A stretch of 60,687 nt of DNA, filler included, from Catajapyx aquilonaris (GCA_000934665.2; 2 parts of 2 records of this genome joined end to end with filler, not necessarily neighbours in it), one strand, 5' to 3'; counted from the whole stretch's first letter, positions 2,855-47,358 are shown. Made by a program: numbers and translations. The notes: generated by a model not told the origin, from the sequence alone.

Positions 2855-3059
2855 ATATACTGTAGGCCCTATAAGTGTAGGCCTATACATGATTGTACTT
2901 GGTATACTGTAATATTGTTGATTTCATTTTTGCTATTGTGACATCACTTTTTTTTGGTCCCAATCAAGTGTTTATTCCATTCTATACAAATCGTTTCATG
3001 GAAATGGCTGCACATTATTAATAAAAATACTGTACCATGCATTCACCATCGAAATCACA

Positions 3060-3192
3060 AGTAAGAGTGTTTAAAATGCATGTAAAAGTAACTGCAAATG
3101 TATGCTCATTAATAAATAATAATTATCTGGTCACTAAACTCGTCTCATGGTCGTCGTCGTAAAATGTGCACGTCTGCTTGGTAACCCCATCT
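3060..3192 (-). pseudogene. Decayed duplicate of the last exon of the headless integrin gene
   Basis: ATGGTCGTCGTCGTAAAATGTGCACGTCTGCTTGGTAACCCCATCT and GTGTTTAAAATGCATG..CAAATGTATGCT match 5888-6091, with an internal deletion. Confidence 0.75.
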
Positions 3193-3883
3193 CATCAAAC
3201 ATGCAAAGAAACACAGAGAGCAACCTGGACTAACTTTTCAGGAGAATATGAGACTCAGTGTAGTTACTCCACTTTGTTGAGTGGGCATCAAGAAACAGTT
3301 CCAGGTCAAATTTAAGCGCAAAGAAAATGTTGGCGAAAGAAACAGCTAAAATATATTTCTTTCGCTAACTTTCTTCATCAACGTCTGGACACCTATAGGT
3401 GTCCAAATGCTGATGATGAATGTCCTATGGTGCAGTCCCAGGTTGCTCGCAAATTGGCGAAGATAATAGGCTTTCGCTGATGGTATTGTATTTTTAGTGC
3501 CATCAATGATGCTAATGTGGAATGAACATACCAATGCAAGTGTTCATATACAGTATGTTGTATAAAATGTGGCCCTTGTGCGATACAGCAAGTACCGGTA
3601 CTGTGCCAACACCATTGTGTTTTGCTGCCAACACCATTGTGTTTTGAACAATGTCAATTTCATTTGTCGAATGTGATGGCCGTCATCGTCCAGCTCTAGC
3701 GCCGTCAACAAATATTTTCCAATTACTCTGATGGCATTTGCCTGCAGCCGAGCATGTAAACATCTGCTTACCTGTCAAGTGTCCTCGTGGAAACATCGCG
3801 GTCACATAATTATTATGTACCAGTTCTTGTGCTTTTGTTCAAGTGACTTGTCCAGCTCAGTAGTTGCTGACACCATAGTAACT

Positions 3884-5743
3884 ATGGCGGTGACCGCTGC
3901 TTCAATTGTGCTGTGCCTCATCGTCATCATGGCAGGGCGTGACTTCGGGCAAGTTATAGTCACATCCGAACATGACGAAGAGACAGATGGGGCCCTTTTG
4001 TCCGAAGCAGTGTCCAGGATGATGACAGAGAGCCAACAGTTGGCATCATGCTCTCTTGCTATATTCTACGACGACCCAGAGCTAGACAGTGGATTGCAGA
4101 AATTGCCCGCAAATGTTAGCAACCCTGTACTTATTTTCTCGCTTCACAACTCTCCAAAGTCAATGGACAGAAACTCGTTTGTGTCCCAGATGTCAGGACA
4201 ATGCTTCGCCGTCCTCTTTCACGCTGATTTCGACACATACCTTTACAATCCGTTCTTTCGAGCCATAGAGGAAGGGAAGATGAGTCGCGACTTTTCAATC
4301 ATCCATGTCGAAGGGGACAACCTGGACGAAATAATTGGCACGGAGCACATCAAAATTAAGTTTTTGCTTGGAATAGACAGACTGAAACGAGTCAAAGGTC
4401 AGCTGACCTGTCGACTGCTGCAGCCGTGTTTCTTCTGCAACAAAGGTCAATACTCAGTCACAGAGTTGCAGAACGTGACCTCCTCATTCGATGGCCAGCT
4501 CTTTCCGGACACAACCAGAGATTTCAACGGACGAGAAATCAAAGTATGCATGTACGATTGGTGGATCAATTCATTCCTGGAGCAATACTTGCATTACTCC
4601 ACCTTTTGGATGCACCAAGACTCGTACTTGGGTGATTACACTTTTTGCGAAGGGGCCAGACTATCCCTCCAGGCTTTGAGCTTCACTCAACCTTACCGCA
4701 TGGAAAATATGATCATTGTAACAAAGAGGCACGAACCATCCATCACATGGAGGCAACTTTTGTCACCTTTTCCTGGCATAGTATGGATCGGTATGTTTGC
4801 AACTCTGATTGTAGCAACCACTTTTAACCTGTGTTTGGCGAAGATGGATTCAAGCCCAAACATTCGAGCATCTTGGATTGATATGCTGACAGAAAGAATA
4901 CTTCCGCCTATTTTTGGACAAGGAGTTACCTCGACTGTCACCGGTGCCACAGCCTTGTTCTTCGGCACTTACTTATTCTTTTGCATCGTGATCTGCACAG
5001 CCTATTCCTCCAAGCTAGTGGAATTGCTGATGCATCCGCCTGTGAAGAACGTGGACACCTTGCAGGACCTGATAGACATGGGATACAGATGGTCAGCTCA
5101 TCAACAACGGTATTTCGATACCTTTGCCAATGTCAGCAATCCGGTTCTGAGGGAAATCGCGTCAAAAGTCGAGATCCTCGAATACTTTGGGCCATACAAA
5201 GTTGATACCGAGACCTTTCTGGAGCTATGCATCTCTAGGGCACTGGAGGAAAAGTACGCCTGTCTTGTGCAACAACTTCCATTTGCTATGTTCAGAGATT
5301 TGGAAGACGGGTATCGCAGGCATCAGCTTCATATCGCTGTTTCAGATCTTCCTGTCATCCTAGCAGGAATTGCGGCCAGGCTGAATTCGGTCATATTCGA
5401 GTCGCTCAACCGCGGTGTTTTGCTGTACTGGCAGAGTGGGATCAGGCACTACGACCAGGACATGAGAATTGAGCGCAAGAGAGAAATTGACATCGCTGAC
5501 TGGTACAAGTTTGCTGGGAAGAAGGGCATACCGGTATTGCTGGAAGGAGAGGCCACAGGTTTGTCTCTGAACCAAATTAAGGCGCCGTTTGTGCTTGCAC
5601 TGGTTGGTTTGGCCTTAGCTGCCACTGTGTTCGCTTGCGAGGTTTTTAAAGCGGCCATTGGCAGTATTTCGCCAGTTAACTGTGCTCGCCATGTTCAGTG
5701 GAATAAATGTAAATGCCATTGCTGCAAGCGTAGCCCTAAGTAA
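3884..5743 (+). CDS. Divergent ionotropic receptor, copy 2 (tandem paralogue), intronless CDS
   Basis: Same architecture as copy 1 and near-identical in the N-terminus and TM region; likely ATG 3884 (ORF track starts at 3731). Confidence 0.9.
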   Translation: MAVTAASIVLCLIVIMAGRDFGQVIVTSEHDEETDGALLSEAVSRMMTESQQLASCSLAIFYDDPELDSGLQKLPANVSNPVLIFSLHNSPKSMDRNSFVSQMSGQCFAVLFHADFDTYLYNPFFRAIEEGKMSRDFSIIHVEGDNLDEIIGTEHIKIKFLLGIDRLKRVKGQLTCRLLQPCFFCNKGQYSVTELQNVTSSFDGQLFPDTTRDFNGREIKVCMYDWWINSFLEQYLHYSTFWMHQDSYLGDYTFCEGARLSLQALSFTQPYRMENMIIVTKRHEPSITWRQLLSPFPGIVWIGMFATLIVATTFNLCLAKMDSSPNIRASWIDMLTERILPPIFGQGVTSTVTGATALFFGTYLFFCIVICTAYSSKLVELLMHPPVKNVDTLQDLIDMGYRWSAHQQRYFDTFANVSNPVLREIASKVEILEYFGPYKVDTETFLELCISRALEEKYACLVQQLPFAMFRDLEDGYRRHQLHIAVSDLPVILAGIAARLNSVIFESLNRGVLLYWQSGIRHYDQDMRIERKREIDIADWYKFAGKKGIPVLLEGEATGLSLNQIKAPFVLALVGLALAATVFACEVFKAAIGSISPVNCARHVQWNKCKCHCCKRSPK

Positions 5744-5892
5744 TCAATTAACGTGCTCACATCTGGGAATACAGTATATTAAATGCATGTGTCGAAAGTA
5801 ATTGTTGGTTTGTTGCTTTTGTGAGATCGGTATTTACGCTGTTTATTCCATAGTTATATACAAATTCATCACCATCACAATCACACAAGTGT

Positions 5893-6803
5893 TTAAAATG
5901 CGTGCAAAATTAGCAGCAAATGTATGCTGATTAATAAAGTTATTCTATGACTACTCCCAACATTTGCTGGACATGTTTTCCCCTTCTGCACCTCCAGTGT
6001 GGTCGTGTTCTTGTAATCTTCCTCGTAGGCGAACTTGTACAAGCAATGGTCGTCGTCATAAAATGTGCACATCTGCTTGGTAACTCCATCTGAAGGCACA
6101 ATAATAAATATCTAGCTCAATTAATCTAAGGACAACCATCACCTTTTATATCAGCAACTTCGACTGGTATCAACCGACATTTGCTGCAATCATGCTGGCA
6201 GTAAACGCATGGTCGCAATTGCTCGCACTTATTCTTGCAAGTCTGAAAATTTAGTGAGCATATAATTATTATACTTTTATGTATACCAACAATATTGCGT
6301 GACATACTTACAGGACAAAGATGGCAGAATGTTCCTGAATATCCGCTGTTGCAGATGCAGACTCCGCAGTGACACGAACCATGTCCCGAGCAGACCACGT
6401 CCTCACCATGTCTGATGCAGTGTCGGTCGAAACGCGTCTCGGCCACGTCGCACTGGCACATTCTCCCAGTCCAGCCAGGGAGACACTGGCATGTCCCACA
6501 CACGCACAGCCCCTTACCTCCACACACTTGACCTTTGAACCGATCACAGCTGAAATTATCGCACTCGCAGTAAGTACCACTCACTTTCTCCTCGGGATTA
6601 TCTTGTACATGACACTCGCACTTTCCGCACACGCAGTCTCCGCGGTCTGAACAGAGAACATTCGTGCTATTGTTGGGTCTGCAGCCGTCCACCATGTTCC
6701 TATGAGACCGGATGACGTCAAATGGACACCTGGACCATATGGAGCTTCCTACTGTTTGGGTCCACAATATTGCGAAAATGAGACCTCCAGCATTGTCGTG
6801 CAT
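5893..6803 (-). CDS. Headless integrin-beta-like protein (~262 aa): weak signal peptide, three I-EGF repeats, beta-tail domain, C-terminal hydrophobic GPI-like end
   Basis: Exons 6803-6312, 6242-6143, 6089-5893 with GT-AG introns in the same positions and phases as introns 7-8 of the full integrin. Contains [20 protein letters not shown] and [17 protein letters not shown] at ~5847-5842. Confidence 0.8.
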
Positions 6804-8234
6804 GGCTAATTTTTGCACAAAAAATAATCCAAACTACATTGCTGAAAATGGCAATAACGATTCGGGAAAACCCGTTTGCGGGGTATGTCACATTGTAGGT
6901 ATGATCGCGGTCAGTGATGACACCGGACTGTGCTATACGAGAATGAAGCCTGCGCCTGAGGTCCATCACTCTTTTTTTTTAATTTAATGAGCTCGTATTT
7001 CTCATGACAAGAGGTACTTTGGCGCCACGCCCTGTAACAGGCGTCAAGGTGCAAACTTCTGATAACGCCACGTTGAACCCTCATTATTTTTTTTGCTGGA
7101 GGGTGTACACACCTGGAGCACTTTTTTTCCTCTTAAAATAATGTGCAAAGTTGTCTGGTTTATGTTACGCGATCTGTTAATATTGCATGGCTGGGTGGGG
7201 TCATCCCGATAATCTAGTAGGGGAAACAAGAGCCACACCTAGCTTTTTTTTTAAAAAAAAAAACTTTCTAATAACTGTGGTGTTAATTACTTTTTCTCAC
7301 CATACTCCATATTAATGGGAATGCGACATAGGCGTACTTTTATTTGTTGATTTATTTGATTTACAAGATTCAGCACTATTAGTAGTCCGGAAGTGGGTTA
7401 GGTAGCCCGGACATACAGACAAACTTTCTGATTTATTATATAGATTAATTTTTTCATTCATTGTTGCTCCGAGTTCCTCATTGATAATAATAGAGTACGT
7501 GCAGTTGTGCACACAAAGACATACCGCCCATTTTACATATGTATGTAGTACACTTGTACAGTACACATCACACTTGCATGTACTGCGGAGTACACATGTA
7601 CAGTACATTGATTATTTTTTGATTTGTTTATGGCGGGGTGAGTTTTTAACTCGCCCCTTTCCTACAAAAATTTGTTTTGTCTGTTGGTAACTTGCATGCC
7701 CATAGTGCTAAAGACCTGTAAGAGTGACCCCAGGTCACATATGAGCTACCCTATACCTCCAGGCTGAAACTCTGGGATTGAGCAGGGCCTCGTGATTTAT
7801 AAACTCATACTACATGGGTCATATTATGTTTCCGGTAATCATCAATAAGAGTCGAAAGATTTCAGTGTGCGTAATTAGTCGTAATGGTAGTCATACCGGA
7901 TGTTTTATTCAGGTATACAATCGTTCAATCGGCAAGGGATGTCAACGCCATCAGTTGGTCGAAGGTTGAACTGTGGCTCACTACTGTATATGCTGTAATA
8001 CAGTAGCAGTGTTGCCACGTAGTTCTGATTCGATTGGTTCAATTTGACATCACCTCTTGGGTCGCTCATAGCTTAGTTGCTAACGATGAAGTTTAGCAGC
8101 TAGAAGCAGCGGAGTTTGCGAATGTATTGGCGCCAAAACCATTCAGTTCAAAATACTTTAATTCAACATATTTAAAAATTTTAATTCAACAAATCTTCTT
8201 ATTGTCCGGATATCAGCAGTTGTGACACACATGC

Positions 8235-11200
8235 TCACTGTCCACTGTACATAGGGTTGCTAAAGGTGGACGTGGGTAGCTTGTAGATGGGATTGTCAGC
8301 CTGTAATGAAATTAAGTAAAGCGTATGTTCTATACACAGCAGCGCTTTTTGCATCTACACAAACCGATTCCCATTTGGCCTTCATCCTGTCCTTCTCGAA
8401 CTTGACGAACTCGTTCTTGTCGTGAAAATGTGTGAGTATCTTCCACAGAAGGAGAAAGAGAAGTCCAATAAGGAAGATGGCCGACGTGACACCAAGCACC
8501 ACTGGAAGGACAATGTTTGGAGGGCACTCCTTACTACTCTGCACTTCCACCCTTATCACATCCTGCTTATCTTCCTCGTAGGCGAACGTGTATCGACACC
8601 CATCGTCATCTATGTACGAGCACATCTGCTTCTTCTTATTGTCATCTGAGAAAACAGTGGCGATACCAAAAAAAATCCATACGTCAAACGTGACAACTCA
8701 ATGCAAAAAATTAATTAATATCTATAGTAATTGCATGCCATTAATTATGTCCACTTCGATCGGAGTGAACGGACACTTGCTGCACTCTATGCTAGGGTTG
8801 TCTTCAAACTGCTGGCAATGGACACAACTACGCAACAGCTCACATTGCTCCTTGCACGTCTGCAAATTATTGAGATATTAAAACATATTTCGTAGAATTT
8901 TACATCAACCACAATGAATAATAAGACAAAATTAAACTTGCAGGGCATAGATGGCAGAAGCTTCCTGAGAACCTTCCTTCTGCGGTTTCTTCGCAGTGGC
9001 AGACCCCGCATTGGCATACACCCTTTTCAGAGCAGATCTGGGTCTGCCCCGGGGCCACGCAGGTGTCTGTGGAATTGTAACACTCGCATCCCTTCCCGGT
9101 CCATGGCTCGTTGCACTGGCAGACCCCGCATTGGCAACGACCCATGTCCTCTCCTCCGCAGACCTGACCGTTGACCCTATCGCAACTGAAGTTGTCACAC
9201 TCGCAGAATGGTCCTGTCACCCTCTCATCTGGGTTGGCACGACGGTAACAGTCGCACACACCGCACTCGCATTTTCCTCGACCAGAGCACAGCACCTCCG
9301 TCGTGTTGTCAGGCCTGCAATTGTCGGTCAGGCCCCTTTCCGTACCCGTACTTGTCGAATTGCACTCGCAGAGTCGACCGAAGTGATCCGAATCGCAGCT
9401 GCACACACCGCATTGCAACGATCCGAATCTGTTGCATGACGCTGAAGCAGCTTCGTAGTCCTATCACAACATATTTTAATGAACTGATTTTAGATGAATT
9501 TTTTAATGAGCGCAACCGAGTGCGCAACACAGTTCGCGCAAATTGTTTCCAACACTACGCATGAGCAATATGGCCGACTTGCGCGAGTGTGGGTGCGCAC
9601 TCGGTTGCTCTCGTAAAAGAAATTACTCACAGGCGAATCTGGTCGTTCGCAAGGACAGTCGCACAACATCTCCACTTCGACCACGAGAGACTCATTGACC
9701 GCAACAGGACTGATCTCAAACCGCTGCGTCCATTTCCTCTGGCTCTGAGGACACCTCGTGACCTCAATTCGAGCCGTGAACTTGATTATGTCACCGATCT
9801 TGAACCCCTCGCACTTTTGAGTCGTCCTAGGAGGACCATCCTCTTTGCAGTTGGACAGGTACGACACTTGAACAGGACCTGACGCCGTGTCTTTCAGTTC
9901 CACCCTTGATGTGATTGCCTAATGGAGTAATATTGAATGCTTCAAACTGCAAAAATGCTCTATGGTGTGTACTGTACTCACATTATACTGGTCTAACACC
10001 AGGTTGACAACATTGGATGAATTTGACGATAGTACTCCAACAGATGACCCTTCGATCCTGTCCTTCAGATCAGTGTAGATGCCTTCCTGATCTTCGGTGA
10101 CTGCAAAGATCAAGTTGATCGAGTTCTCCTTGGCCTTGTTGTTGATCTGAGACACCGAAGGGTAGTCTTGAAGGGTCGAGTGCATATACCTGTTGTTTTC
10201 CATGTGACACTCGCCGTCGTTAGGCTTCACCACGCCTCCCAACTGTTGATGACAACAATTAGTATGTAATAAATAGAAGGGCGTCATAACGTGTCTAATA
10301 GTTTGTGACCTTTCCATCCCCCGCGTAATGAAAGGACGCGTCTGTTGATAAGACCAGAAGACGACGGGCTCTTTCTCGCCATCCGATTTCCTTGCGACAG
10401 GCGATCGCTTGCATTATGGCGTCGAACCCTCCTTCTGGGGCGTCCAAGTTGCCAGAAATAGCTGTTTCCATTACTTCAGTCTGAAATAGTTCACACATAA
10501 ACACTAATTTTGGTTCTGCATATTTCAAATAAGATCAGAGGCTACTTACTGCAAATCGTGACGTGTTAGTGCTGAGAGACATGTGATTCTTAAACCCATA
10601 AGGAGCCGCACATTCTCTGCAAGGGCTCTTCAACCTTCAGACAAAACAAACCAGATTAACACGCCATTTTTAATTGTGCGAGTACATCACATACTTGAGA
10701 GGTACGGTGCTAACAAACGGCATGACCTCCTTGTCCACAAAACTTCCGAACCCCAGACGAAAATTGGAAGTGATGTTCTCCATCGTTTGTGCCAGGAGGT
10801 CACCCAGCTTCGACAGTGTCTTCTTGTCGTCCAACATCGAATAGGACAGGTCCATCACATAGTAGAGATCAACCGGATAATTCCGGGCCTGTGAGTAGAA
10901 AATTTCCAGATTGTAAGGCACGTCTGAAAAATAAAAATTCAAGTTATGTTACAAATCTTTTGCCCGGAGACTAACTGTATATGTTACTTACTGGGTCTGA
11001 GGCGTAGTTTGACATGCTGTGGTCTGAGTTGCACCGAATCCTGTCCCATTGACCCATCCGACAGTCCCTTGTCCATCAGCGTTTCCTGCTCATTTACAGG
11101 CTGGATCAAAAACCTGGTTCCACATTGGTCCATGATGCTGACCGTTATCGGGTCGTCCATCTGGAAGCATCTGCCCTCAGGTCTGTCGAAGTTGGGTTTG

Positions 11201-11370
11201 GAGCACCATAAGCACGTCGGGATCTGTATACACTCATGGCAATTAGCCTTTCCGAAGCACGGATTCGGACGACCAGACGACGAAACACGTTGCTCCAATG
11301 GAGGTGTCGTTTGACCCAAAACTTGCTCCAAAATTACAACCAAAAGGACCTGTACTCCTGAGCTACGCAT
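8235..11370 (-). CDS. mys: Integrin beta subunit, betaPS/myospheroid-like (~799 aa, 10 coding exons)
   Basis: Exons 11370-10992, 10923-10695, 10634-10550, 10480-10310, 10242-9982, 9918-9631, 9460-8942, 8859-8739, 8645-8365, 8300-8235 total 2400 nt in frame. PSI domain, [36 protein letters not shown] repeats, TM, tail with NPIY and NPMY. Exact orthology is unverified. Confidence 0.95.
9508..9612. repeat. Imperfect inverted repeat (hairpin/MITE remnant) in integrin intron 6
   Basis: GCAACCGAGTGCGCAACACAGTTCGCGCAA ... TTGCGCGAGTGTGGGTGCGCACTCGGTTGC. Confidence 0.75.
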
Positions 11371-11827: not shown

Positions 11828-12613
11828 ATGGCGCTCCGTTGGCCTATGGTTCAGCATTGTTGCGGCTGCATTTCCAACAGGACCGGGGCCCTAATTTATG
11901 CTTATCTGTCGTTGGTGAGTACGTGACTTTTTCAATCGCATTTTTGGTGAATAAGTTTATTTCGACCATACAGGTTGGGTACATCATACTCGTTCTGGGC
12001 TCCCTGATTACCTTGGGTTTCGGACTGGGCTTCTATTACACGAACTACTATCGTACTGGCTACGATGTTACTCTATTTTTTTCGTCAGGTAAGAGTAGGC
12101 TTATAATGTACACGATAACATGATTATTTATGAACGATTCTTTTACAGTTATGATTTTCATCGGAGTTCCCGTACTGTTCGTCAGCATTCTGGGAATAGT
12201 TTACACCTCGATGCTCCTCAGCGGAATCCACAAGGTATGTGCAATTAAAAATGAACGTTTAATCGCTAATATACCATTTGTTGGATTAGAGGTCACCGGA
12301 GTATATGACCCCATGGCTGACTTTCCAACTCCACGCTGCATTGGTCACCTTTGCTCTGGTCATTAGCGTGCTGATGATCAACATCAGCCCAATTGTCACA
12401 GCCATTTCAGTGCCATTGCTTCTCATCCTGGTTGGTGTCCAGATTTACTGCATCATATGCGTCTTTTCACACTATCAGGTACGTTCAATTGCGTGATGGT
12501 ATACACATTAATACACTTGCTTACTGTTATTTTTACACCAGCAGGAGCTGACCATATTTGTTCGTCCCCTATCACTTTATAATGATGCAGACAGCACGGA
12601 TCATATGCACTGA
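11828..12613 (+). CDS. Small four-TM protein, DUF4728/LAPTM-like, copy A
   Basis: Exons 11828-11914, 11974-12088, 12149-12234, 12290-12478, 12545-12613; motifs CCGCISNRTGALIY, LLSGIHK, MTPWL, FSHYQEL. Confidence 0.8.
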
Positions 12614-12873
12614 TTGGACATGTGCTCATCATGATCAGTTTTCCTGCTCTGTACCGGATGAGTTGTCATTTTTGCATGTAGTGTATACAAGTGGCCCCGC
12701 GTCTAAACAATTGTGAGTTATATTGTGTCAAACGCCATCAAATAAAAAAACAGTGATAAAAAAGGAACGTAAACCTGTCATTCCCTGGGCTTATCGCGTA
12801 TATACCAGCAGACTAATAGCATACGTAAGTGAAACACATATATCCCGAGCTGCCTTTCAGAAGCAAGAAACGC

Positions 12874-14167
12874 ATGATGGACAGGCCAGATCTAGAGTAC
12901 AGGTCCCTACGAGGCGATAAGGCTTTCAAAAGGAATTCGCCCAATAGTTGTGCTGGAAAGCGTACTGCAGCACTCGTCTATGTCTACATGACTTTGGTGA
13001 GCATAAACAATTGTAGATATTGAACAAAAATATCTTAAAAGAGAATAAGAAAATTTGTCGGAATAATCAAGTTGCAACTGCTTGTCACGTTTTAGCTTGA
13101 CGCTTTAAGTACGTGGAGTAGGAAGAATCTGGATTTCTGTATCATTTGATATTTATAGACTTCGTTGTTCTATTGTTCAACTATTGTGCCTTGCTGTCAG
13201 CATTTCCAGTTGTTTACTACGTCGGCAGCTGTTCAGTGTTCAAAGTTCTGTACCTTATGGGTCCCATGCGTGTATGCCACTTAAATAAAGTTAAATCGCA
13301 TTGTGTTCAACAAATCAGGATGACTGTGAATATTGCAGCTATATTAAAATAATTTACGTACTTAGTCAATCGTGTGTAAGATATGAGTATCTTTTCAGAT
13401 GGGCCAGATAATCCTCACTATAGGATTCATTATTGACACCGGATATTCTTATAACGAAGCTGTTTTACCTGAAACTTCATATTATTTTAAATACCGGCAG
13501 TTGCTCTCTGGAGGTAAGTGATTTAACATTAAAACGTCTTAAAATATACTTGAAGATCAGGCCATCTACTGGTCCTCGAAAGCATAAACATAATAATCTA
13601 TTGTTGTAAACACACCAAATATTTACACAATGCTTCAGCTAGGATATCCACAGGAGCTCCAACAATTTCCGTCAGTATCCTGGGAATACTCTTAACCGCA
13701 ATGGCCATCCACGGAATTAAAAAGGTACAACAATGCTCTATAACAGTGCAATAGCCTCTCTTTTTTTAATTAAATAATTACAAAATACTGCTCTTGGCCG
13801 CAGAATATCCCGCACATGATGATACCATGGATAACTCTCCAAATGTACAGCGGCGCTTACATTTTGGGCATCGTCATCAGCCTATTGTTGCTCAAATCTG
13901 CGTACATAATCACCACCGCAGTTCTTCCTCTCGCCCTGCTTCTGACCATTGTTGGTTACGGTACTTCGGTGGTGCTGTCATCATACGAGGTACAGTACGT
14001 AATAGGAACAATGAGTTTTAGCAATGACAACAATGTGACTACTGCAACAATTTACGTCTAACTATAGTTTGTCACAATGACTGTCTTTATTGCAGGACAT
14101 AAGCCTTCTTGTGTCGTTTGGCGCGACTAAACCGCCGGACAGCACGTTTAGCCTTGGTGACTATTAG
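12874..14167 (+). CDS. Small four-TM protein, DUF4728/LAPTM-like, copy B
   Basis: Exons 12874-12996, 13399-13513, 13639-13724, 13804-13989, 14096-14167; RTAALVY, HGIKK, MIPWI; same intron phases as copy A; AATAAA at ~14195. Confidence 0.75.
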
Positions 14168-14386
14168 AACCGAACTGATTGTATACACATTGGAAATAAA
14201 ATGTGGTTAATAAGTTCTGCGTGACTTACGCCTCAGGAAACGGATGCCAGATAATCTTAATCGCGTCTTAGCCACAACCATATCCTTCCTCATAAAGGGT
14301 GCTTGTGACCTGGAAAAACTCCAAGCAGTTTGAGCTCGTTTTTTCATTTTGCATCACACTACTTCCACCACACCCTGCTGCCAACA

Positions 14387-15394
14387 ATGAGGGTCCCAAT
14401 GCTTGACAACTGTTGCTTTTGTGTTTCTAATCGAACTGGAGCACTCGCCTGGGCCTACCTGGCAATTGTAAGTGAAAACTGTGGTGCTGTAACATGCACA
14501 TAATAATATCATTGTTACTAGAAATAGCATGAGAAATTGGGGCAATCCACTGTCTTTTACCCCGCCTCATTCCTCGAAAATATTCCGCAAGATAAGACCG
14601 CAACATACTATCCTGTATTACAATGTCGCATATATTTCAGGCTGGGTACATAGTGCTTATCTTGGGATCACTAGTTACGCTGGGCCATGGTCTTGGCATA
14701 TACTACTACACGTACAGACCACCTGTCAGGGCGTATGAGACAGTTAACTACTTTAGTATATGTAAGTTGTGGAAATTCTAACTATATAAACTTGCAATCA
14801 GTGATATGTGGATTTTTTTCTTCATTCAGATTTGACCTTCATGGGAATGCAGATGTTAGTCTTCAGCATCATGGGGATGACATTTACTGTTATTCTCGTT
14901 AAAGGAATCAAGCAGGTGAGTATATGCTATGGAAAATAATGTCAATATCTTTCTACAGATTTTATATGCCAGAATCCATATCAATTTATTTTGAATAGGT
15001 CCAACTGTCAGTTCCCTCAACTTTGTGATCAAAATAAATTCCATTCATTGATTGTTTCCAGAAAATTCCTCGCTTCATAACTCCATGGCTGTCTGTCCAA
15101 GTCTACTGCGCAGTCTACATTGCTGGAATTACCATCGGTGTCTTGCTGGTAAACGTGCCTATTATCAGCGGGATATGCGTCCCACTGCTCCTTATCCTTC
15201 TGGGAGTCATTATCTACTGCTCTGCATGTATCTATTCCCACTACCAGGTATAAATCCCTATAGTGAAGCCATCTTGTCCTTGTACTATGCATAATCTCTC
15301 TGCAAAAATATTTCAGGAGCTGGCATCTGCCGTGTCTCACACAGATTTGCAGGTTCCTTCGTACTCCGACATGCGCCGTCAAGGTACGCCGTAA
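14387..15394 (+). CDS. Small four-TM protein, DUF4728/LAPTM-like, copy C
   Basis: Exons 14387-14467, 14641-14761, 14830-14915, 15062-15247, 15317-15394; CCFCVSNRTGALAW, KGIKQ, ITPWL, HYQEL; AATAAA at ~15424. Confidence 0.8.
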
Positions 15395-15665
15395 CAGCTG
15401 CATATGTACTGTAAAACTTAATTAATAAACGCTAATACCAAATGCAGTTACTTTATATCCGTGGCACTGCTCCTGCAAATTGTTATCTAGTGGACTTTAA
15501 CCCTAAGCATCTCTGCGGCTGGGGAAAAAAAAACAGCTTTGCAGAAGCCATCGTGTGTTACCGAATGCAGCTGGAATGTAGCCTTCATTTCTTCATTGTC
15601 TTCTGGAGCAGTTGGTCGTGCTGGGCTGTACTTGTTCCATCAGGTCGTGTTCGAGCGTGTCTAGT

Positions 15666-17162
15666 ATGCCTGTAAATCGTCAAGTAAATCGTTTTCCATT
15701 ACTTCGCCGATGCTTTGGATGTCTCAGCATCCGAAAAGGAGCAACCGTTTATGGATACGTCCATCTGGTAAGTCACAGTGCAGTGGAGGGACAACTTTTA
15801 CACACACAAAAAAATGCAGTAATGGCTAGCTATAGCTACATGCAGCTACAGCAAGCTAAGACACGTATTGTTGCTAATCCAGTAATCCTAATTAAGTCAC
15901 AAAAGCAGTTGAAGTGGAGATGGCGACCAGCTTTTTTTAAAAAAATAGGAGAATACGTATGTATGATGCAGGTGTACAATTAGAGTACCTACTGAGCTGT
16001 GTCATGTCAGGCAAAATAATTCTGGTCATTGCGCATTGTATGTACGGATAAGTTATTAATATCATAAGGAAAGTTGTTGGTTCGCAGCTGCATGTCCTGG
16101 ATGGCTCGTATTACAATAGATAAAGGGAGAAATTCCTCTGTCTCGCCAACATCCGGGCACTTGCAAAACACCGATAGATCCGAGCTGGGGAAAAAGAGTT
16201 AATTTTGATATGAAAATGTTAAAATGGTCCTCTGATGTAAGAAATTGGCAAATTATTTTTAAAGTTTAGTTTGTAGTTGGAAGTATTGTTATATCAGCTC
16301 CTTGGGGCAGTAGAAAAAACTCAGTTTTATGTTGTTGTTTTGCCTGACATTTATTGTTCCTGCCATCTGACGCATCAACTGTCACGATTTAAAATAATTA
16401 CATCCTGTGTATAGATAAGCCTCTTTTTAATGTCCCTCTTTGCAGATTGGGAGTCTCGTGGTTTTGTTCGGCTGCGGATATTCTCTGAAATGTGGAATGG
16501 CTGATCTCAATACACTTCAATCGATTCCACCTGCAGTGATGAACCCTGTCGATGCAGGGTATCATAGGATTTACCGGAAGACTGAAAATGCAAAGGGTAT
16601 ACGAAACATATCAAAACTGAATTACTTTGGTCTGGATATAATATGCAACTAATCCTTCTCTGTTTCAGCAACCATTTGGTTTGCTACGACCACTTTTTTC
16701 AATGGCCTGGTTAGCCTGGCACTTAGCGCCTTATTGCTCCATGGAATCGACAAGGTCCGTTTCCAACAATGCACATTCTGACCCAATTATTGTCCGCCGT
16801 AATGCATGTGTAATATTATTTTCAGAGAGACGGGCGTTTGGTATCCCCATGGTTGGTGATGCAATTCTTGTTGGTAGCTAACGTGCTGGGATATTTAGTC
16901 GCCATATTGCTGACACGACCTGATCCCTGGGGCTACATCCCAGTTACCCTTTTGGTGTTCCTCTTGTGGTTCCAGGGCCATGGCATCATGGTTGTCTTCT
17001 CTTACTACAAGGTTAGTAGTATATTCTGCACTATTAAAACTGCATTGGTTGCATCTTTAACTCCAATATGTCTATAACTTCGCAGTCTATAACTCGCAGG
17101 AGGTGATCGAATACCAGCCGCCTACCATCCCAACAATCAGCCAAGTCATCGAGACGGTTTGA
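15666..17162 (+). CDS. Small four-TM protein, DUF4728/LAPTM-like, copy D
   Basis: Exons 15666-15767, 16446-16596, 16669-16754, 16826-17011, 17100-17162; CFGCLSIRKGATVYG, HGIDK, VSPWL; C-terminus -ETV. Confidence 0.8.
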
Positions 17163-30294: not shown

Positions 30295-30394
30295 NNNNNN
30301 NNNNNNNNNNNNNNNNNNNNNNNNNNNNNNNNNNNNNNTTAATTAATTAANNNNNNNNNNNNNNNNNNNNNNNNNNNNNNNNNNNNNNNNNNNN
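30295..30394. other. Assembly gap with artificial six-frame-stop linker
   Basis: 44 N + TTAATTAATTAA + 44 N = exactly 100 nt. Confidence 0.95.
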
Positions 30395-31824: not shown

Positions 31825-33324
31825 TTATTGGGAATATATAAAAGAATCATTGATAGACAAGTGCATATCGTATTGCTGAAGCTGATTGGACAATTCACTA
31901 TGGAATTCAGGTGAAAGCACCAGCTCAGTACTAAGCAAGTCAACCTTTTCCAAATACTCTCCGCATGAATCCAAAATGATTTGAATCACTTCCCTTTTCA
32001 TGCTCGTGTCACACACATAGAGAGTATGCAATTCCTTCAGGTCGGCATTACGGAGAAGTTCGTAAACACAGGATTCGACAGATGTGTTATACACTTTAAG
32101 ACTCTTCAGTTTGCTACAGAAGGGAATGATATACCTCACTTGTTGTACTGACACGTTTGTCATTTCCAAATGTTCCAGTTGTTGGGATCCAACATGTGTC
32201 ATTTTACATGGAAGAGAATGTGCAATGTATTCACCGCCCAATAGCTCAAGGCACTTTAGATTGGGAAAAATCTCCCTGATTCCTGCAACATTGACACCAG
32301 TGCACCTACAAATGGTCAGACACTCAAGTTTTGGGTATGACACATTCATGTTTTGTCTGAAGAGAGAATCAAGGCCAGTAATATCGTTCAAGTTTAACTG
32401 TTGGAGACTAAACATGCACTTGTCCATCAGGAAAAGAAGGTCTGAAGATGTCCCGTTACGTAGTGTCAAGTTCTTCAGATTCGCTAATTCATTAATCATA
32501 TTTACATGAGCATTGCCACGCATGCACAGGGTCAGCTTCTCAAGGTATGGAAAATGGTTTACAAGCTTTTGCACAGAACTTGAATCACGCACGTTCAGTG
32601 TATCTACAAAGTCCTTCAACTTATAAGCACCTTTGCACAGTGGCAGAACTTTCAGGAAACAGTCACTCCTTATCTGCAGCACCTCCAAATTGGGAAGATG
32701 GTCAAGAAGGTGTATTGCTACCTCAGGCTTCATGAAAAGAACAAAAATTTTCTTCAGGTGCGTGCATTTTGAGAGAAGCATTAATGTGGATGTGGTGGCA
32801 CAAGAATCACCCACTTGAAAGGCATCATAAAATACAAGCAAAATTTCTTCCAAGAGCTGACAGTTCTCAAGAACCTGCTGCAAGAGCAGTGGTTGGTTCC
32901 CTAACGAAACCTTAATTGAGCGCAAGTTGGTCAGTTTGGGGAACTGAAAACCTTGCCATTCCTTGGTTTGGGGTAGCCATAAATTAACTGTAGGTTCAAT
33001 ATTGATCAGATCACTCATGACATGAAGACCACGTAAGATCTGGTGAGGCCACCTAGTAAAAAATGCATGAGAACCCTTTTCACTAATTATGGTGCATTTG
33101 GGATGAAAAGCACTGGTAAAGTCAAAGCGATCCCTCCTCTTTGAACAAATCCTAAGGACCTCACCGACGTACTCATTTGCAAATGTATTTGGGATGTCCC
33201 GCACATATCCCCGAATATCTTCTTGTCGTCTGCCACCACTCTCTCCGCATGAATCCACTACGAGCTTGGCCACGACACGCAGGCTTGAGGCACGGAGAGT
33301 GGGAGGCTGTTTTCTCCTTGGCAT
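31825..33324 (-). CDS. Intronless RNI-like leucine-rich repeat protein with N-terminal BC-box-like motif, copy 1
   Basis: ATG 33324, MPRRKQPPTLRASSLRVVAKLV; repeated LxxLxxLxL units (PNLEVLQI, PYLEKLTL, PNLKCLEL); no signal peptide or TM. Confidence 0.85.
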   Translation of the reverse strand: MPRRKQPPTLRASSLRVVAKLVVDSCGESGGRRQEDIRGYVRDIPNTFANEYVGEVLRICSKRRDRFDFTSAFHPKCTIISEKGSHAFFTRWPHQILRGLHVMSDLINIEPTVNLWLPQTKEWQGFQFPKLTNLRSIKVSLGNQPLLLQQVLENCQLLEEILLVFYDAFQVGDSCATTSTLMLLSKCTHLKKIFVLFMKPEVAIHLLDHLPNLEVLQIRSDCFLKVLPLCKGAYKLKDFVDTLNVRDSSSVQKLVNHFPYLEKLTLCMRGNAHVNMINELANLKNLTLRNGTSSDLLFLMDKCMFSLQQLNLNDITGLDSLFRQNMNVSYPKLECLTICRCTGVNVAGIREIFPNLKCLELLGGEYIAHSLPCKMTHVGSQQLEHLEMTNVSVQQVRYIIPFCSKLKSLKVYNTSVESCVYELLRNADLKELHTLYVCDTSMKREVIQIILDSCGEYLEKVDLLSTELVLSPEFHSELSNQLQQYDMHLSINDSFIYSQ

Positions 33325-35990
33325 GATCTGCAAGATGAATATTAGTCTACACGTCCACGAATAATAATTATTATTATGCGACCCACCAGCAGCTTATCTT
33401 CCCACAATTTGTTAACATTCTGTGAGGCAAATCTCATGAGATCCTCTGAACTCACCACACTGTGGCCAATAATCCCATCCTTGATAATAAGTGATCAGTG
33501 CGCATTACTCACGGGTATGGTATATGTACAGAGTACAGTACGCCCAAACACAGGGTGAGTCCTGGGAATGGTCTGGGGAGGGAATGTTCGTCCGGGACAG
33601 GATCCAGGTACGTTTTAATCCGGGAAATCACAACAAATTCCGTCTGATGAAGGGCGGCCACATTGCAAGTCACGTGTCTAGTCACGTGGGATTACGTAAC
33701 TGCAAATCTGCAACTCCAGGAGTGCCAATCTCGAAGAATATGAAAATATGCAAATGACCCGCTCTCATTTTTTAAAGCCTCGCTTCAAGACTTGCGAACC
33801 TTCGCCTGATATTGTATTCCTTCGATTTTCATAAAATACACAGAGCGACTTGGTCTGTTTGTGTGACGCAACGTGCTTGGAAAGACCCGCGGTAATAAAA
33901 TAATATGCCGCACAACGTACACCAGAATGATTACTTTTCTGGCCGTGGCCTATTTGGCACTTTTTGGCATCATAATGTACTGGGAGGGGACTGAGGACGG
34001 TGGCCTCTGCCCCTGGGGCAAAGCAGGACAATGATCACATCTTGTGGATATGCACAGGTGGGTCTTGAATGATTTCTGCGTTCTTGTCGGACATGAACTC
34101 ATTGCAACTTGCAAGTGATTCGGTTCATGCTACAGCCAGACCTCCTCCACCGCTGACTGCTGGAATTATTGATTATTGACCCCACATTTTTATGGATTCT
34201 GTGGAATCTTTGTGCATCTTGAATTAAAAGGACTGAATTGGATTGCAAGACTGGGTCAGCCCATAATGTATGTACCCTTACAGATTTGCAGAGAAAAGGG
34301 TTGCCTTTACTTTAATATTCTCAAAGTAAAAAAACATACAAAATGGAGCAGTTCAATATTTACATTCTTTCAAAATTCATACAAGGTAGGAAATGTCTGA
34401 AGTGGTCTGCTTCACCAATGGTTGGGACAGGGATGCACACCATGGCAGCGAGTCCTGGAATTAAAACATTCACTCGCGTTCATGCACACCATTCTACCAT
34501 GGTTCTACCACAATATTCCCTTCACCAGAATGACAAAAATTACGGACATAACATAGGAAATAATAATGAATAAAAAAACAAAATTACAGACAAAAATTGT
34601 CGCTATTAAAATAATGATCATTGTCTGTGTCCATGTATATGGATGCAGTGCTATAATACTGTAGTTGAATGCGAGGTAGAATTGCATTTATTCTTTAAAC
34701 TAAATGTTACTTTTCTTGGGAAAGATTCAACTCCTTTCATGCCAGTTGAACGCACCTTTTGTGTAATACTGTAAATTACCTTGCCATTATTGTGCTGTGA
34801 TGTACGTGTATGACGAACACTATAGGCAATGTGTGATGTTTAAAATTTGACTGCAATAATTAGAGTGAAACATGTGTCCATGAAAAAACATTGAGAATTT
34901 GTGTAACTTTGCCCAATGCTCATTTGATCCTGGCATGGGATTCCCAATATATTTTTGGATAATTGACACCTGCTCAATGTGTAAAAGTTACAAGGATAGC
35001 CTCTTCAGTGTGAACTAGTTTCACTGCATAACCACATCAGGCAATATTTTTAGCTTACCATTCTGATCTCAGTAGTCTTTTCCACGCATTTGAGTCAGGG
35101 TCAGATAAATTTTATTTACATTTATGGATCTGATTTGCATTAAGAAGTTACAGTTATATTTTTGCAAATCCTATTACAGGGTATGCAAGAAAGCACGATG
35201 ATCACAGGAACTCAAATCATGACTTTTGAAGTCAAAGGTGGGGTTCATAATATGGTTCGTAATGTAGCTTTAGGAGGGTAAAGGTGGTACTCCACATTGC
35301 ACCCATGATTGGTGCAAGTGAATGTTACACTGCAGGTTACTGGGAACGACGTGTCACTATGTAGGATAGTTTTGAAGACACCAATGCAGAACTATTATTC
35401 AACATTTAAACCAAATAGTTCACTTTAATTACATCGAAGTAGAAAACATACAAAATGAAATAGTTCAACAATACTGGTATTACCATTGTTTCAAAACTCA
35501 CACAGAGTGAGATAACAGTCTATTACAAAATAACTGAAGCATTTCTTTTCTCTCCTCCATAAATAAACTCCACATATGCATTGACTCCACATCATGGTGG
35601 CTCCACATATTGAGAAATGATTGGCCACCTCAGGTGTAGTAATGAAAAACTTTGTCTGATTATTTTCAGTTACTACACAATGGCCAATGGCCCATATAGC
35701 CAGTTTTACGCATTCAGAGTATTTAATTCTTGCATAGTCTTACCTCTACCACCACAACACTACCAGGCAACGCCTGGTTACTTGATAGTAGGCAGAATTG
35801 TCGCCCTTCACTGACAGGAACAAAAAAATAACTAGACGAGAGATGAGTAGGTTCTTAAGAGCTGCAGCAACCTGCTCATTTAAAGAAAGAATGCATATGA
35901 TCACTTAAAATTATACTGCACTGTTCCATTTGTAATGTAACAGTAGTTCAAATATTACAAAGCACTTCCATTTTCCTCTGGTTACTAGGC

Positions 35991-37484
35991 CTAGTCACCA
36001 TTTAAATCAGCATTATTGGGAAAAGAGTCATTGACAGAGAAGTGCATATCATATCGCTGAAGCTGATTGGACAATTCATCATGGAATTCAGGTGAAAGAA
36101 TCAGCTCAGTACTACTCAAGTCAACCCTTTCCAAACACTCTCCACATGAATCCAAAATGATTGGAATCACTTCCCTTTTCACACTGTTGTCACACACCAA
36201 GAGTGTACACAACTCCTTCAGGTCGGCATTACGGAGAAGTTCATAAACACAGGATTCGACAGATGTGTTATACACTTTAAGACTCTTCAGTTTGCCACAA
36301 AAGGGAATGATATATCTCACTTGTTGCACTGGCACATTGATAAGTTCCAAATGTTCTAGTGCTGGAGTTCCAGCATGTGGCACTTTACATGGAAGAGAAT
36401 GTGCAATGTATGCACCATCCAATAGCTCAAGGGACTTTAGATTGGGAAAAATCTCCATGATTCCTGCCACATTAATGCCTGAGCAATTAAAGATTATCAG
36501 GGACAGAAGATTTTGGTATGAGACATTCATGTTTTGTCTGAAGAGCAAGTCAAGGTCAGTAATATCGTACAAGATTAATTTCTGGAGACCAAACATGCAC
36601 TTGGCCATCAGGCAAAGGAGGTTTGAAGATGCCTCATATTGGATTTGTAAGCTCTTCAGATTGGGTAGTTCACTAATCATATTTACATGCACACTGTTAC
36701 CCGTGAGCAGGGAGAGCTTCTCAAGGTGTGGAAAATGGGTTACAACCTTTTGCACAGAACCAGTATCACGCACGTACAGCTCAGCTACAAAGTCCTTCAA
36801 CTTATAAGAACGTTTGCACAGTGTAAGAAGTGTATGGATACAGATACTCCTCATCTGCAATACCTCCAGATTGGGGAGATGGTCAAGAAGGTGTATTGCT
36901 ACCTCAGGCTTCATGAAAGGAACAAGGATCTTCTTCAGGTGCTTGCATTTTGAAAGATGCAGTAATGTGGATGGGTTAGTATGACACTCAGCCACTTGTA
37001 AGTCATCATATATTACAATATCCTCCAACTGTGGACAGTTTTCAACAACCTGTTTCAAGAGCTGTGGTTTGGTACCTAATGAAACCTTAATTGAGCGCAG
37101 GTTATTCAATTTGGGGAATGAAGTATCTTGCCATTTATCTTTCCATGGCAGCCATAAATTAACTGTAGGTTCAATAGTGATCAGATCACTCATGACATGA
37201 AGACCACGTAAGATCTGGTCAGGCCACCTAGTAAAAAATTCACTAATCACCGTGCATTTGGGATGAAAAGCACTAGTAAAGTCAAAGCAATCACTCCTCT
37301 TTGAACAAATCCTAAGGACCTCACCGACGTACTCATTTGCAAATGTATTTGGGATGTCCCGCACATATTGTTGAATCTCTTCCTGCTGTCTGCCGCGACT
37401 CTCTTCGCACGAATCCACTACGAGCTGGGCCACGGCACGCAGGCTCGAGGCACGGAGAGTGGGAGGCTGCTTTCTCCTTGGCAT
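35991..37484 (-). CDS. Intronless RNI-like LRR protein, copy 2 (tandem paralogue)
   Basis: 497-aa ORF collinear with copy 1; 5' and 3' flanks also duplicated (33480-33700 vs 37650-37860; 31490-31824 vs 35660-35990). Confidence 0.85.
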   Translation of the reverse strand: MPRRKQPPTLRASSLRAVAQLVVDSCEESRGRQQEEIQQYVRDIPNTFANEYVGEVLRICSKRSDCFDFTSAFHPKCTVISEFFTRWPDQILRGLHVMSDLITIEPTVNLWLPWKDKWQDTSFPKLNNLRSIKVSLGTKPQLLKQVVENCPQLEDIVIYDDLQVAECHTNPSTLLHLSKCKHLKKILVPFMKPEVAIHLLDHLPNLEVLQMRSICIHTLLTLCKRSYKLKDFVAELYVRDTGSVQKVVTHFPHLEKLSLLTGNSVHVNMISELPNLKSLQIQYEASSNLLCLMAKCMFGLQKLILYDITDLDLLFRQNMNVSYQNLLSLIIFNCSGINVAGIMEIFPNLKSLELLDGAYIAHSLPCKVPHAGTPALEHLELINVPVQQVRYIIPFCGKLKSLKVYNTSVESCVYELLRNADLKELCTLLVCDNSVKREVIPIILDSCGECLERVDLSSTELILSPEFHDELSNQLQRYDMHFSVNDSFPNNADLNGD

Positions 37485-39210
37485 GATCTGAAAGACGAAT
37501 GAAATGTTTCAGTATTTTATAATATTTCCACAACTAATTACACGCCACTGGCCATGCAAAACTCCTTTCCATAGCGTATGAGCATTATGTTACCCAAATA
37601 CCATGACACTTTTGAACTTATTTCCATGCGGGGCAGATGAATAACCTCATGCTTGATAATAAGTGATCAGTGTGCATCCAGTCATACTCACAGGTAGGTA
37701 CTCTACGAGCAAACACAGGGCGAGACTGAGAGTGAGGGAGTCCTGGTAATAGTCTAGGCGGGGAAATGTTGCCCGGGATCCAAAACCTGGTCCGTTTTAA
37801 TCCGGGAATCACAACAGATTCCGTCGGATGGGGGCGGCCATCTTGAAAGTCACGTGACTGAAATACCAAGTGGTGCCAATAGAAGTATTTTCAGTATTTC
37901 CACGTGCCTCCTTTTTTAAAGCTGTTTATATGAAATCAAAGCGGTGTGTATCTATAATATCCTGATGTGTCGTGGGCATGCCGAAGAACTAAAATTCCAA
38001 ATCGAATTAGGGCGGGTTTGAGTCATATCTTCTGTACTGTACTGTACGTATACAGTAGCATGCAGCATTTTTCATGCCATAATTATCTCCTGGCCAAGTT
38101 CGAGCATCGATCATTCAGGGCAACACGTAAGCAAGTGCAAGGTCTTTGCCTCGATTATCTCAAAGCTGATTTTGTGGATTTGGGGGGTTTCACGTGTTTG
38201 CCCATGACATAATTTTATGTTCTCATTTATTTCACATTATTCTTTGACCCTACGTTTTATCCCCACCCCAATCAACATATTCTTCCAACAATAATAATAT
38301 CATACCATTACCATACTACTCGTACAATTATGTGCGTGGCGGCTTTATCCTGCTAAACTTGCTACAGTGACACTTTTCAGAGGTGTATATGTTATGCCGG
38401 ACTTATAATTATTGTTGTACATGCTATCAATAATTACCGGAATGGTAAGATGTGATTATATGATGATGTCAACCTAAAGTGAAAACAATTTATTACAATG
38501 AGTCTATAACTTTTATCGGCTGGTGTAGCCATGGTCTAACACCAGTGCGAACATTGCATTTTATTAAAGAAGGCGACTTCAATAATAAAATTCCATTTAT
38601 GCTCTACAGCAGGGGTTCCCAACCAGGGGTACAAGGTGGCCCTCCTGGGGGTACGGAGCTAAAGTACCCCTGAGTCCAAATCGAGTAATTTGGGCACAGC
38701 ACAGCCCATATGTGGCTTGCACAAAGGAATATACGAGAATCTGGATTTTAATCGAAAAAATACTTAATTTTCTCTCACGTCATCAGCATATCAGAGTGTT
38801 CACTCTAATATAGGGCTACTCAAAGTTAAAAAAAAATGACAATATAAAACATTTCAACAGTAGCATTCCTTCCCAAATTCACATAGAGAACCAAACTAGT
38901 CAACTACAAATCAATAATTGAAGCTGCTTCTTAAGACATTTGTTACATCAGAGAGGCATTGGTTATCTGGAATACGCTCTATATTGGTACAAAACACATG
39001 GTCAGTTCATCCCAGCACAACTCATTGAAATGTCATGTTTTGCCCTTCACTGACATAATAAGCAATATACTGTATCAGGAGCTAGCTCTTGACTGTATGT
39101 ATTACAGTTTTAGAGGAACTGAGTCAGATCCCAAGAGCTAAAGGGAACCTTTCTCATTTAAAAGAGCAAATATATTATTCCAGCAGGCAGTTTTATGAAA
39201 CGCAAAGATA

Positions 39211-47216: not shown

Positions 47217-47358
47217 NNNNNNNNNNNNNNNNNNNNNNNNNNNNNNNNNNNNNNNNNNNNNNNNNNNNNNNNNNNNNNNNNNNNNNNNNNNNNNNNNNNN
47301 NNNNNNNNNNNNNNNNNNNNNNNNNNNNNNNNNNNNNNNNNNNNNNNNNNNNNNNNNN
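47217..47358. other. Assembly gap flanked by poly-C and poly-G
   Basis: Run of N in the sequence. Confidence 0.95.

Follow-up and report, generated by a model that had tools for sequence, protein, structure and literature searches.

The window analysed here, a stretch of 60,687 nucleotides (filler included) of Catajapyx aquilonaris DNA in which two parts of two records of the genome (GCA_000934665.2) are joined end to end with filler, contains a three-exon gene on the minus strand (6803..5893), with a complete integrin beta-PS-type gene upstream of it on the same strand. Its product, referred to below as the stalk-only protein, begins with a hydrophobic leader, continues with the integrin EGF modules I-EGF2-4 and the beta-tail domain, and ends in a run of 16 hydrophobic residues. 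On balance, the evidence favors a maintained stand-alone paralogue of the neighboring integrin beta, which probably arose by an old partial tandem duplication that kept the lower leg only and which would have a likely secretory leader, a GPI-type tail and a role as a modulator in cis.

Structure of the stalk-only gene

An earlier note, made by reading the sequence, had described a three-exon open gene on the same strand as the full integrin and downstream of it, free of stops and frameshifts and with its own AATAAA. This description was borne out in each point. The features of the gene, its parent and its decayed relative are as follows.

8235..11370, minus strand: parent integrin beta-PS-type gene, 10 exons, 799 aa, with PSI, beta-I with DLSYS, hybrid, I-EGF1-4, beta-tail, transmembrane (TM) helix and NPIY/NPMY
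5893..6803, minus strand: stalk-only gene, ATG to stop; joined exons open, 789 nt, 262 codons plus stop
6834..6836, minus strand: in-frame TAG 5' of the ATG, read from the sequence
6803..6312, minus strand: exon 1, with ATG at 6803-6801 and donor CCT/GTAAGT
6741..6803, minus strand: leader, residues 1-21, a candidate signal peptide with core AGGLIFAIL, assigned by heuristic only
6312..6728, minus strand: I-EGF2, I-EGF3 and I-EGF4 (Cys26 to the end of exon 1), 24 cysteines, from Pfam, PDB alignment, pLDDT and Foldseek
6243..6311, minus strand: intron 1 (GTAAGT...TTTTCAG), with the position and phase (0) of parent intron 7
6143..6242, minus strand: exon 2, encoding the first half of the beta-tail domain; matched parent exon 8 in tblastn with E 1.2e-6
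6090..6142, minus strand: intron 2 (GTGATG...CCTTCAG), with the position and phase (1) of parent intron 8
5893..6089, minus strand: exon 3, encoding the second half of the beta-tail domain and a putative C-terminal signal, with the stop; Pfam Integrin_B_tail, E 8.5e-7; tblastn to parent exon 9, E 2e-13
5944..5967, minus strand: A-N-V-G-S-S-H-R, candidate omega-site region and spacer after the last cysteine, found by inspection
5896..5943, minus strand: hydrophobic C-terminus, 16 residues, by alignment a homologous remnant of the parent TM helix
5842..5847, minus strand: AATAAA, 46 nt 3' of the stop, read from the sequence
3043..3192, minus strand: decayed second copy of exon 3; blastn 93% and 81%, alignment and translation

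The gap between the parent gene and the stalk-only gene is 1,431 bp. Both introns of the latter are GT-AG, no frameshift was found across the joined frame, and the frame ends in a TAA at 5895-5893. The TAG at 6836-6834 closes the frame 5' of the ATG, so no coding exon further upstream reads into exon 1 in that frame. Seven ORFs in the intergenic region (6706-8072) gave no Pfam match better than E 0.013, and thus no hidden upstream domain was seen. A scan with sigma-70 promoter and terminator models, which are not applicable to a eukaryote, returned counts at the shuffle level.

Domains kept and lost

The earlier claim that I-EGF2-4 and the beta-tail domain are kept was supported by several comparisons. 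Exon 1 matched EGF_integrin in Pfam with an E value of 1.5e-22, and residues 32-164 aligned with residues 466-594 of human integrin beta-2 in the PDB, which comprise I-EGF2-4 (E 7e-30). The 8-cysteine pattern of the integrin-type EGF is present with all 24 cysteines in register, and I-EGF1 is absent. An AlphaFold2 model of exon 1, built from an 86-row alignment, had a mean pLDDT of 85.4; the value was at least 89 over residues 41-164 except for a lineage-specific insert, and about 51 in the leader. When this model was submitted to Foldseek, 36 PDB chains were matched at E <=1e-3, with 4neh_B at the top (2e-15); all but two of the 36 are integrin beta chains, as are all those down to E 6e-4. 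Exon 3 alone matched Integrin_B_tail at 29.8 bits, under the Pfam cut-off of 33.6, because exons 2 and 3 each encode only part of the beta-tail domain. Against a custom-built beta-tail profile made from 23 full-length integrins, the joined product of exons 2 and 3 scored 46.9 bits, compared with 11.0 for the best of 2000 shuffles.

The head is missing, as the earlier note had stated. The parent exons that encode PSI, beta-I and hybrid gave no tblastn match at E<0.1 within 5800-8234, and the Pfam scan found no Integrin_beta (VWA) domain in the stalk-only exons. Integrin_b_cyt was likewise absent from the gene in Pfam, and the cytoplasmic NPxY tail is missing.

Relation to the parent gene

The parent integrin also carries a signal peptide, and its DLSYS motif is the metal site of the beta-I domain. 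Its best database matches are beta-PS proteins of insects, ostracods and other crustaceans, at no more than 58% identity; the window is eukaryotic and of pancrustacean-like character. At two successive introns the donor of the parent is GC, namely GCAAGT following exon 7 (8937-8941, minus strand) and the unusual GCATGC following exon 8 (8733-8738, minus strand); the corresponding donors of the copy are both GT.

An alignment of 196 codons shows the same residue in the copy and the parent at 110 positions. All 33 of the aligned cysteines are conserved, compared with only 77 of the 163 other residues, and both introns match those of the parent in position and phase, in agreement with the conserved cysteines and homologous introns reported earlier. 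In total the stalk-only protein has 34 cysteines, an even number. Cys26 corresponds to C1 of I-EGF2, and its 14-residue distance from C2 equals that in the parent, which indicates that the mature protein begins at a domain border. The sequon after C2 of I-EGF2 is also conserved. The copy thus shares with the parent the I-EGF2-4 and beta-tail folds, the cysteines and the intron positions, whereas it differs from it in having no PSI, hybrid, beta-I/MIDAS or I-EGF1 domain and no NPxY tail, and in a TM helix that is 8 residues shorter.

Age and selection

The stalk-only gene is an old duplicate kept by purifying selection on its disulfide framework. The DNA of the copy and the parent gave no blastn match at E 1e-5, although the frame is open, as expected from the earlier description of a strongly diverged yet intact copy. 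The identity between the two at codon positions 1, 2 and 3 was 72%, 73.5% and 42%, respectively. The dS was 1.3-4.3 (saturated) and the dN was 0.32-0.38; the Nei-Gojobori dS was incomputable because synonymous sites are saturated. The resulting dN/dS, a pairwise value and hence an average over both lineages, was 0.07-0.24, well away from the value near 1 that the earlier note had named as refuting. In the protein trees, the branch of the copy was 0.47-0.64 and that of the parent 0.33-0.41, indicating that the copy evolves only 1.2-1.6 times faster than the parent.

A neutral simulation of the parent's stalk was performed with substitutions only, using 20,000 runs per divergence level. All 33 cysteines were intact in 5 runs at 0.1 substitutions/site and in none at 0.2 or more, and the frame was open in 6.5% of runs at 0.1 and in 0.01% at 0.65. 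The window also holds an internal example of neutral decay: the second copy of exon 3 (about 90% identical), brought by a recent 3.2-kb tandem duplication, has a large internal deletion, a frameshift and stops. Signs of a pseudogene such as a broken frame, lost GT-AG introns or a relaxed dN/dS are absent from the stalk-only gene. The saturated dS, the kept cysteines, the low dN/dS and the simulation together point to a maintained gene and not a relic, and these tests indicate that it was kept by selection for most of its history.

Leader and C-terminal region

The core of the leader comprises 9 residues with a mean Kyte-Doolittle (KD) value of 2.47 and is followed by the small residues V-G-S-S; the n-region has no positive charge and includes an Asp. 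Comparable hydrophobicities were obtained for the leaders of a Pollicipes protein (2.50) and the transcript record P0213 (2.34), both described below. When the leader and the 1.4-kb upstream region were compared with the parent locus by sensitive blastn and local alignment, no similarity was found (score 7, shuffle mean 8.6), and residues 1-21 were covered by no match in a HMMER scan of 1.84 billion representatives. The leader most likely would work as a signal peptide, since a fold with 34 cysteines requires the secretory pathway to form.

The earlier note had proposed that the TM helix and the NPxY tail were replaced by a new C-terminus. The tail is indeed missing, but the helix was remodeled and not replaced, as it aligns with that of the parent. 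Judged by this alignment, the C-terminal hydrophobic run is the parent TM helix, shortened and cut at its inner end. A-N-V-G-S-S-H-R aligns with the outer half of the parent helix, which in the copy reads G-S-S-H-R; the helix has been shortened by 8 residues, and the stop codon stands at its inner (cytoplasmic) end, where the cytoplasmic tail would start.

In a GPI signal, small residues occupy omega and omega+2, a polar spacer of about 5-10 residues comes next, and the usual shape is a terminal hydrophobic run without a charged stop-transfer. In the stalk-only protein the hydrophobic stretch reaches the extreme C-terminus and no cytoplasmic residues follow it. The best 12-mer of the tail had a mean KD of 2.69 with 4 residues after it, and the run includes two His. 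Both N-V-G and G-S-S triplets are present, and the spacer measures 2-6 residues according to the omega site chosen. Based on these features, the C-terminus would most likely direct GPI anchoring; otherwise it would serve as a weak tail-less membrane anchor or lead to release from the cell.

Ancestry and proteins of the same build

The headless leg build is not unique to this genome, and RefSeq has unstudied models of the same architecture. The following records were found.

XP_063888556.1: Scylla paramamosain, 285 aa
A0A0P4WGX5: Scylla olivacea
XP_037074383.1: Pollicipes pollicipes, 277 aa
XP_057293922.1: Hydractinia symbiolongicarpus, 254 aa
P0213 and P0270: transcripts, on contigs of about 1 kb

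Like the protein of the window, these models combine a leader with I-EGF2-4 and carry a hydrophobic end where a TM helix would lie, but they are only 38-57% identical to it, and their source names are automatic only ('integrin beta-PS-like' or 'integrin beta-2-like'). Pfam found no Integrin_beta VWA domain in any of the same-build proteins scanned, and a beta-tail domain in four of the five, the exception being Hydractinia. When aligned, each of these proteins stops at the inner end of the TM helix and has small or polar residues instead of the helix's outer half; all except the Hydractinia protein start at C1 of I-EGF2. The leader and tail hydrophobicity of the stalk-only protein resembled that of Scylla, Pollicipes and three further same-build records. 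A screen for a leader plus a hydrophobic end was passed by 4 of 54 proteins of 200-340 aa; the Hydractinia protein failed it with a tail hydrophobicity of 1.28. Two records, P0196 and P0312, were left out of the count as apparent fragments or retained-intron products.

In the phylogenetic analysis, the copy and the parent were sisters in both careful trees, with support of 99/99 in a 30-row tree and 100/94 in a 31-row tree, and in a quick 54-row tree with an SH-aLRT of only 94. The 30-row tree was a subset of the 54 rows from which 24 long-branch or distant rows had been dropped, and the rows of both careful trees were picked after the quick tree had been viewed. Going by these comparisons, the stalk-only gene descends from the neighboring integrin beta gene and not from vertebrate ITGBL1, in line with the independent origin proposed earlier; ITGBL1 itself lay outside the trees. 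The Scylla short form was sister to the Scylla full-length beta in the 31-row tree (100/100), which indicates that it is not an orthologue of the window's copy. As the Scylla form and the copy are each sister to their own full-length beta, there were at least two separate origins. No orthologue of the stalk-only protein was found by word-index searches or by HMMER against 1.84 billion representatives, where the best identity was 58%.

The placement of the Pollicipes protein was less clear-cut. It stood beside the copy and the parent in the 31-row tree (88/90), and its row has a deviant composition and a long branch. In the AU test, a clade of the copy and the Pollicipes short protein was not rejected (p 0.569); the tree constrained in this way was 2.77 log-likelihood units better than the quick free tree. 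The copy and the Pollicipes protein have no insertions or deletions in common.

Tentatively, partial duplicates of beta-PS genes may have become lipid-anchored headless lower-leg proteins repeatedly and independently: here and in Scylla, with a barnacle and a copepod-like animal as probable further cases and a cnidarian as a possible one. On this view, every such protein begins at C1 of I-EGF2 and closes with a TM helix reshaped into a GPI-type signal. They would then form a regulator class that is not known to have been described in invertebrates. This generalization is a possibility that we hold with less confidence than the reading of the single gene.

Alternative explanations

The three exons could be alternative 3' exons of the upstream integrin gene, given that they lie on the same strand only 1.4 kb downstream of it. 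Six AG sites lie between the TAG at 6836 and Cys26, and in-frame joins to them can be drawn: parent exon 1 leaves 1 base and exon 2 leaves 2, and the sites at 6751, 6748, 6784 and 6805 need 1 base and those at 6744 and 6729 need 2. However, parent exons 3-7, the sole donors that keep an intact head, end in phase 0, and none of the six sites is in that phase, so a transcript with an intact head cannot join in frame. Joins from exon 1 or 2 would cut the hybrid or the beta-I domain mid-way, and the candidate sites are without the pyrimidine tracts seen at the gene's real acceptors. The parent moreover has a complete 3' end of its own, exon 1 of the stalk-only gene has its own ATG with an in-frame stop before it and a hydrophobic leader after it, and same-build proteins elsewhere carry a leader directly before I-EGF2. 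An isoform is therefore very improbable. Hardly more probable is an unexpressed relic or a frame that is open by chance. The atypical leader, the failure to find an orthologue and the location of the last exon within a recently rearranged region would fit such a relic, but survival by chance is ruled out by the neutral simulation: with 20,000 runs per level, the cysteines were never all retained at 0.2 substitutions/site or more, against a dS of at least 1.3 for the gene. With canonical GT-AG sites, stop and AATAAA in place and no frameshifts, only a very recent death would leave no trace.

A shared ancestry with the Pollicipes protein is similarly improbable. It would make the stalk-only gene a member of an older crustacean family whose look of a local duplicate came from gene conversion with the neighbor. 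The AU result, the position of the Pollicipes protein next to the copy and the parent, and the starting domain border common to the short forms (Hydractinia excepted) agree with this, whereas the pairing of the copy with the parent in both careful trees, the lack of shared insertions or deletions and the deviant, long-branched Pollicipes row speak against it; the Scylla pairing also means that at least one other origin was separate. A rather more serious competitor, though still unlikely, concerns the mode of attachment: the protein may be made but not GPI-anchored, and would then either be secreted, as ITGBL1 is, or sit in the membrane as a tail-less type I protein. The spacer is short, the hydrophobic run includes two His, the C-terminus is derived from a real TM helix, and ITGBL1 shows that a secreted integrin-EGF protein is viable (PMC7563769). 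On the other side, 16 hydrophobic terminal residues with no charged stop-transfer and N/G/S/S before them have the usual shape of a GPI signal, and the same remodeling is seen in five same-build proteins. We therefore retain the reading as a maintained stand-alone paralogue, probably with a GPI-type tail.

Other features of the window

Several further features were observed. A recent tandem duplication (469-2603 versus 3636-5763) is 90% identical over 2150 bp. The duplicated unit carries an intronless ORF of about 680 aa on the plus strand (568-2583 and 3677-5743); both ORFs gave a weak Lig_chan match (E 0.005-0.007) and may be divergent ionotropic-receptor-like genes. The right edge of the unit coincides with the acceptor of exon 3 of the stalk-only gene, and an imperfect palindrome of 56 bp (82%) occupies 3368-3423, at the junction of the two units.

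Short ORFs follow one another at about 12000-16000 on the plus strand. Their N-termini are similar, with a Cys-rich part before S/N-R-T/K-G-A, and they contain hydrophobic segments; one ORF matches DUF4728 weakly (E 0.0015). The series resembles a tandem cluster of genes for small multi-pass membrane proteins. On the minus strand, 31825-33393 and 35991-37508 contain uninterrupted leucine-rich ORFs of 522 and 505 aa that are 74% identical, have no Pfam match and appear to be a tandem gene pair. The plus-strand ORF at 57802-58356 matched the N-terminal (beta-grasp) domain of glutamine synthetase with E 5.5e-7, below the Pfam cut-off, and is probably one exon of a glutamine synthetase gene. Runs of N at 30295-30338, 30351-30394 and 47217-47358 are assembly gaps or masked stretches.

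Proposed role and comparison with known integrin relatives

Integrin activation depends on the packing of the two legs against each other and against the bent head. In the scheme that we favor, an old partial tandem duplication of the neighbor would have kept only the lower leg, giving a product with a new leader, a leg that runs from the first cysteine of I-EGF2 through I-EGF3 and I-EGF4 to the beta-tail domain, a TM remnant and no tail. On the cell surface, such a free lower leg could present beta-leg surfaces for the alpha calf domains and the bent headpiece. The leg protein might thereby act in cis as a non-signaling competitor or modulator of integrin leg association and activation; we infer this role from general integrin structure.

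A beta lower leg tethered to the outer leaflet, if this is what the gene encodes, would be a natural tool for asking what the leg does alone. Long selection and the same build in other invertebrates, with a separate origin in Scylla, suggest a real and repeated use. If the convergence is true, a free beta lower leg would have a selectable job at the surface, most likely the tuning of leg association or activation. The gene may also exemplify two processes, namely the gain of a new leader by a partial duplicate and the cutting down of a TM helix to a GPI-type signal.

A literature search outside subscription journals found no headless GPI-type integrin beta relative in invertebrates. ITGBL1 is said, in the title of one paper, to modulate integrin activity. 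If the proposed reading is true, the stalk-only protein would be the invertebrate equivalent of ITGBL1, differing from it in domain set and in mode of attachment. An invertebrate-looking Logan record, P0006 (453 aa), has a leader, two successive integrin EGF sets and a beta-tail-like end without a TM helix, and resembles ITGBL1 except for this ending.

As reported, the secreted ITGBL1 carries a signal peptide and ten I-EGF repeats and is devoid of head, TM helix and tail (PMC7563769). ITGBL1/TIED, the vertebrate integrin beta-like 1, is thus like the stalk-only protein in having integrin-type EGF modules and neither a head nor a cytoplasmic tail (PMC7563769). It differs in its ten I-EGF modules and the lack of a hydrophobic C-terminus, whereas the stalk-only protein combines three I-EGF modules with a beta-tail domain and an end derived from a TM helix. 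In zebrafish, the truncated beta-1 paralogues beta1tr-1, -2 and -3 are reported to be tandem-duplicated separate genes for non-signaling subunits. In these, every cysteine is conserved, PSI, beta-I, hybrid and EGF1-4 are retained, and the protein ends four residues after EGF-4 (PMC1538996). On that description, the zebrafish proteins are a mirror image of the present case, as they lose the beta-tail domain, the TM helix and the tail, whereas the stalk-only gene loses the head.
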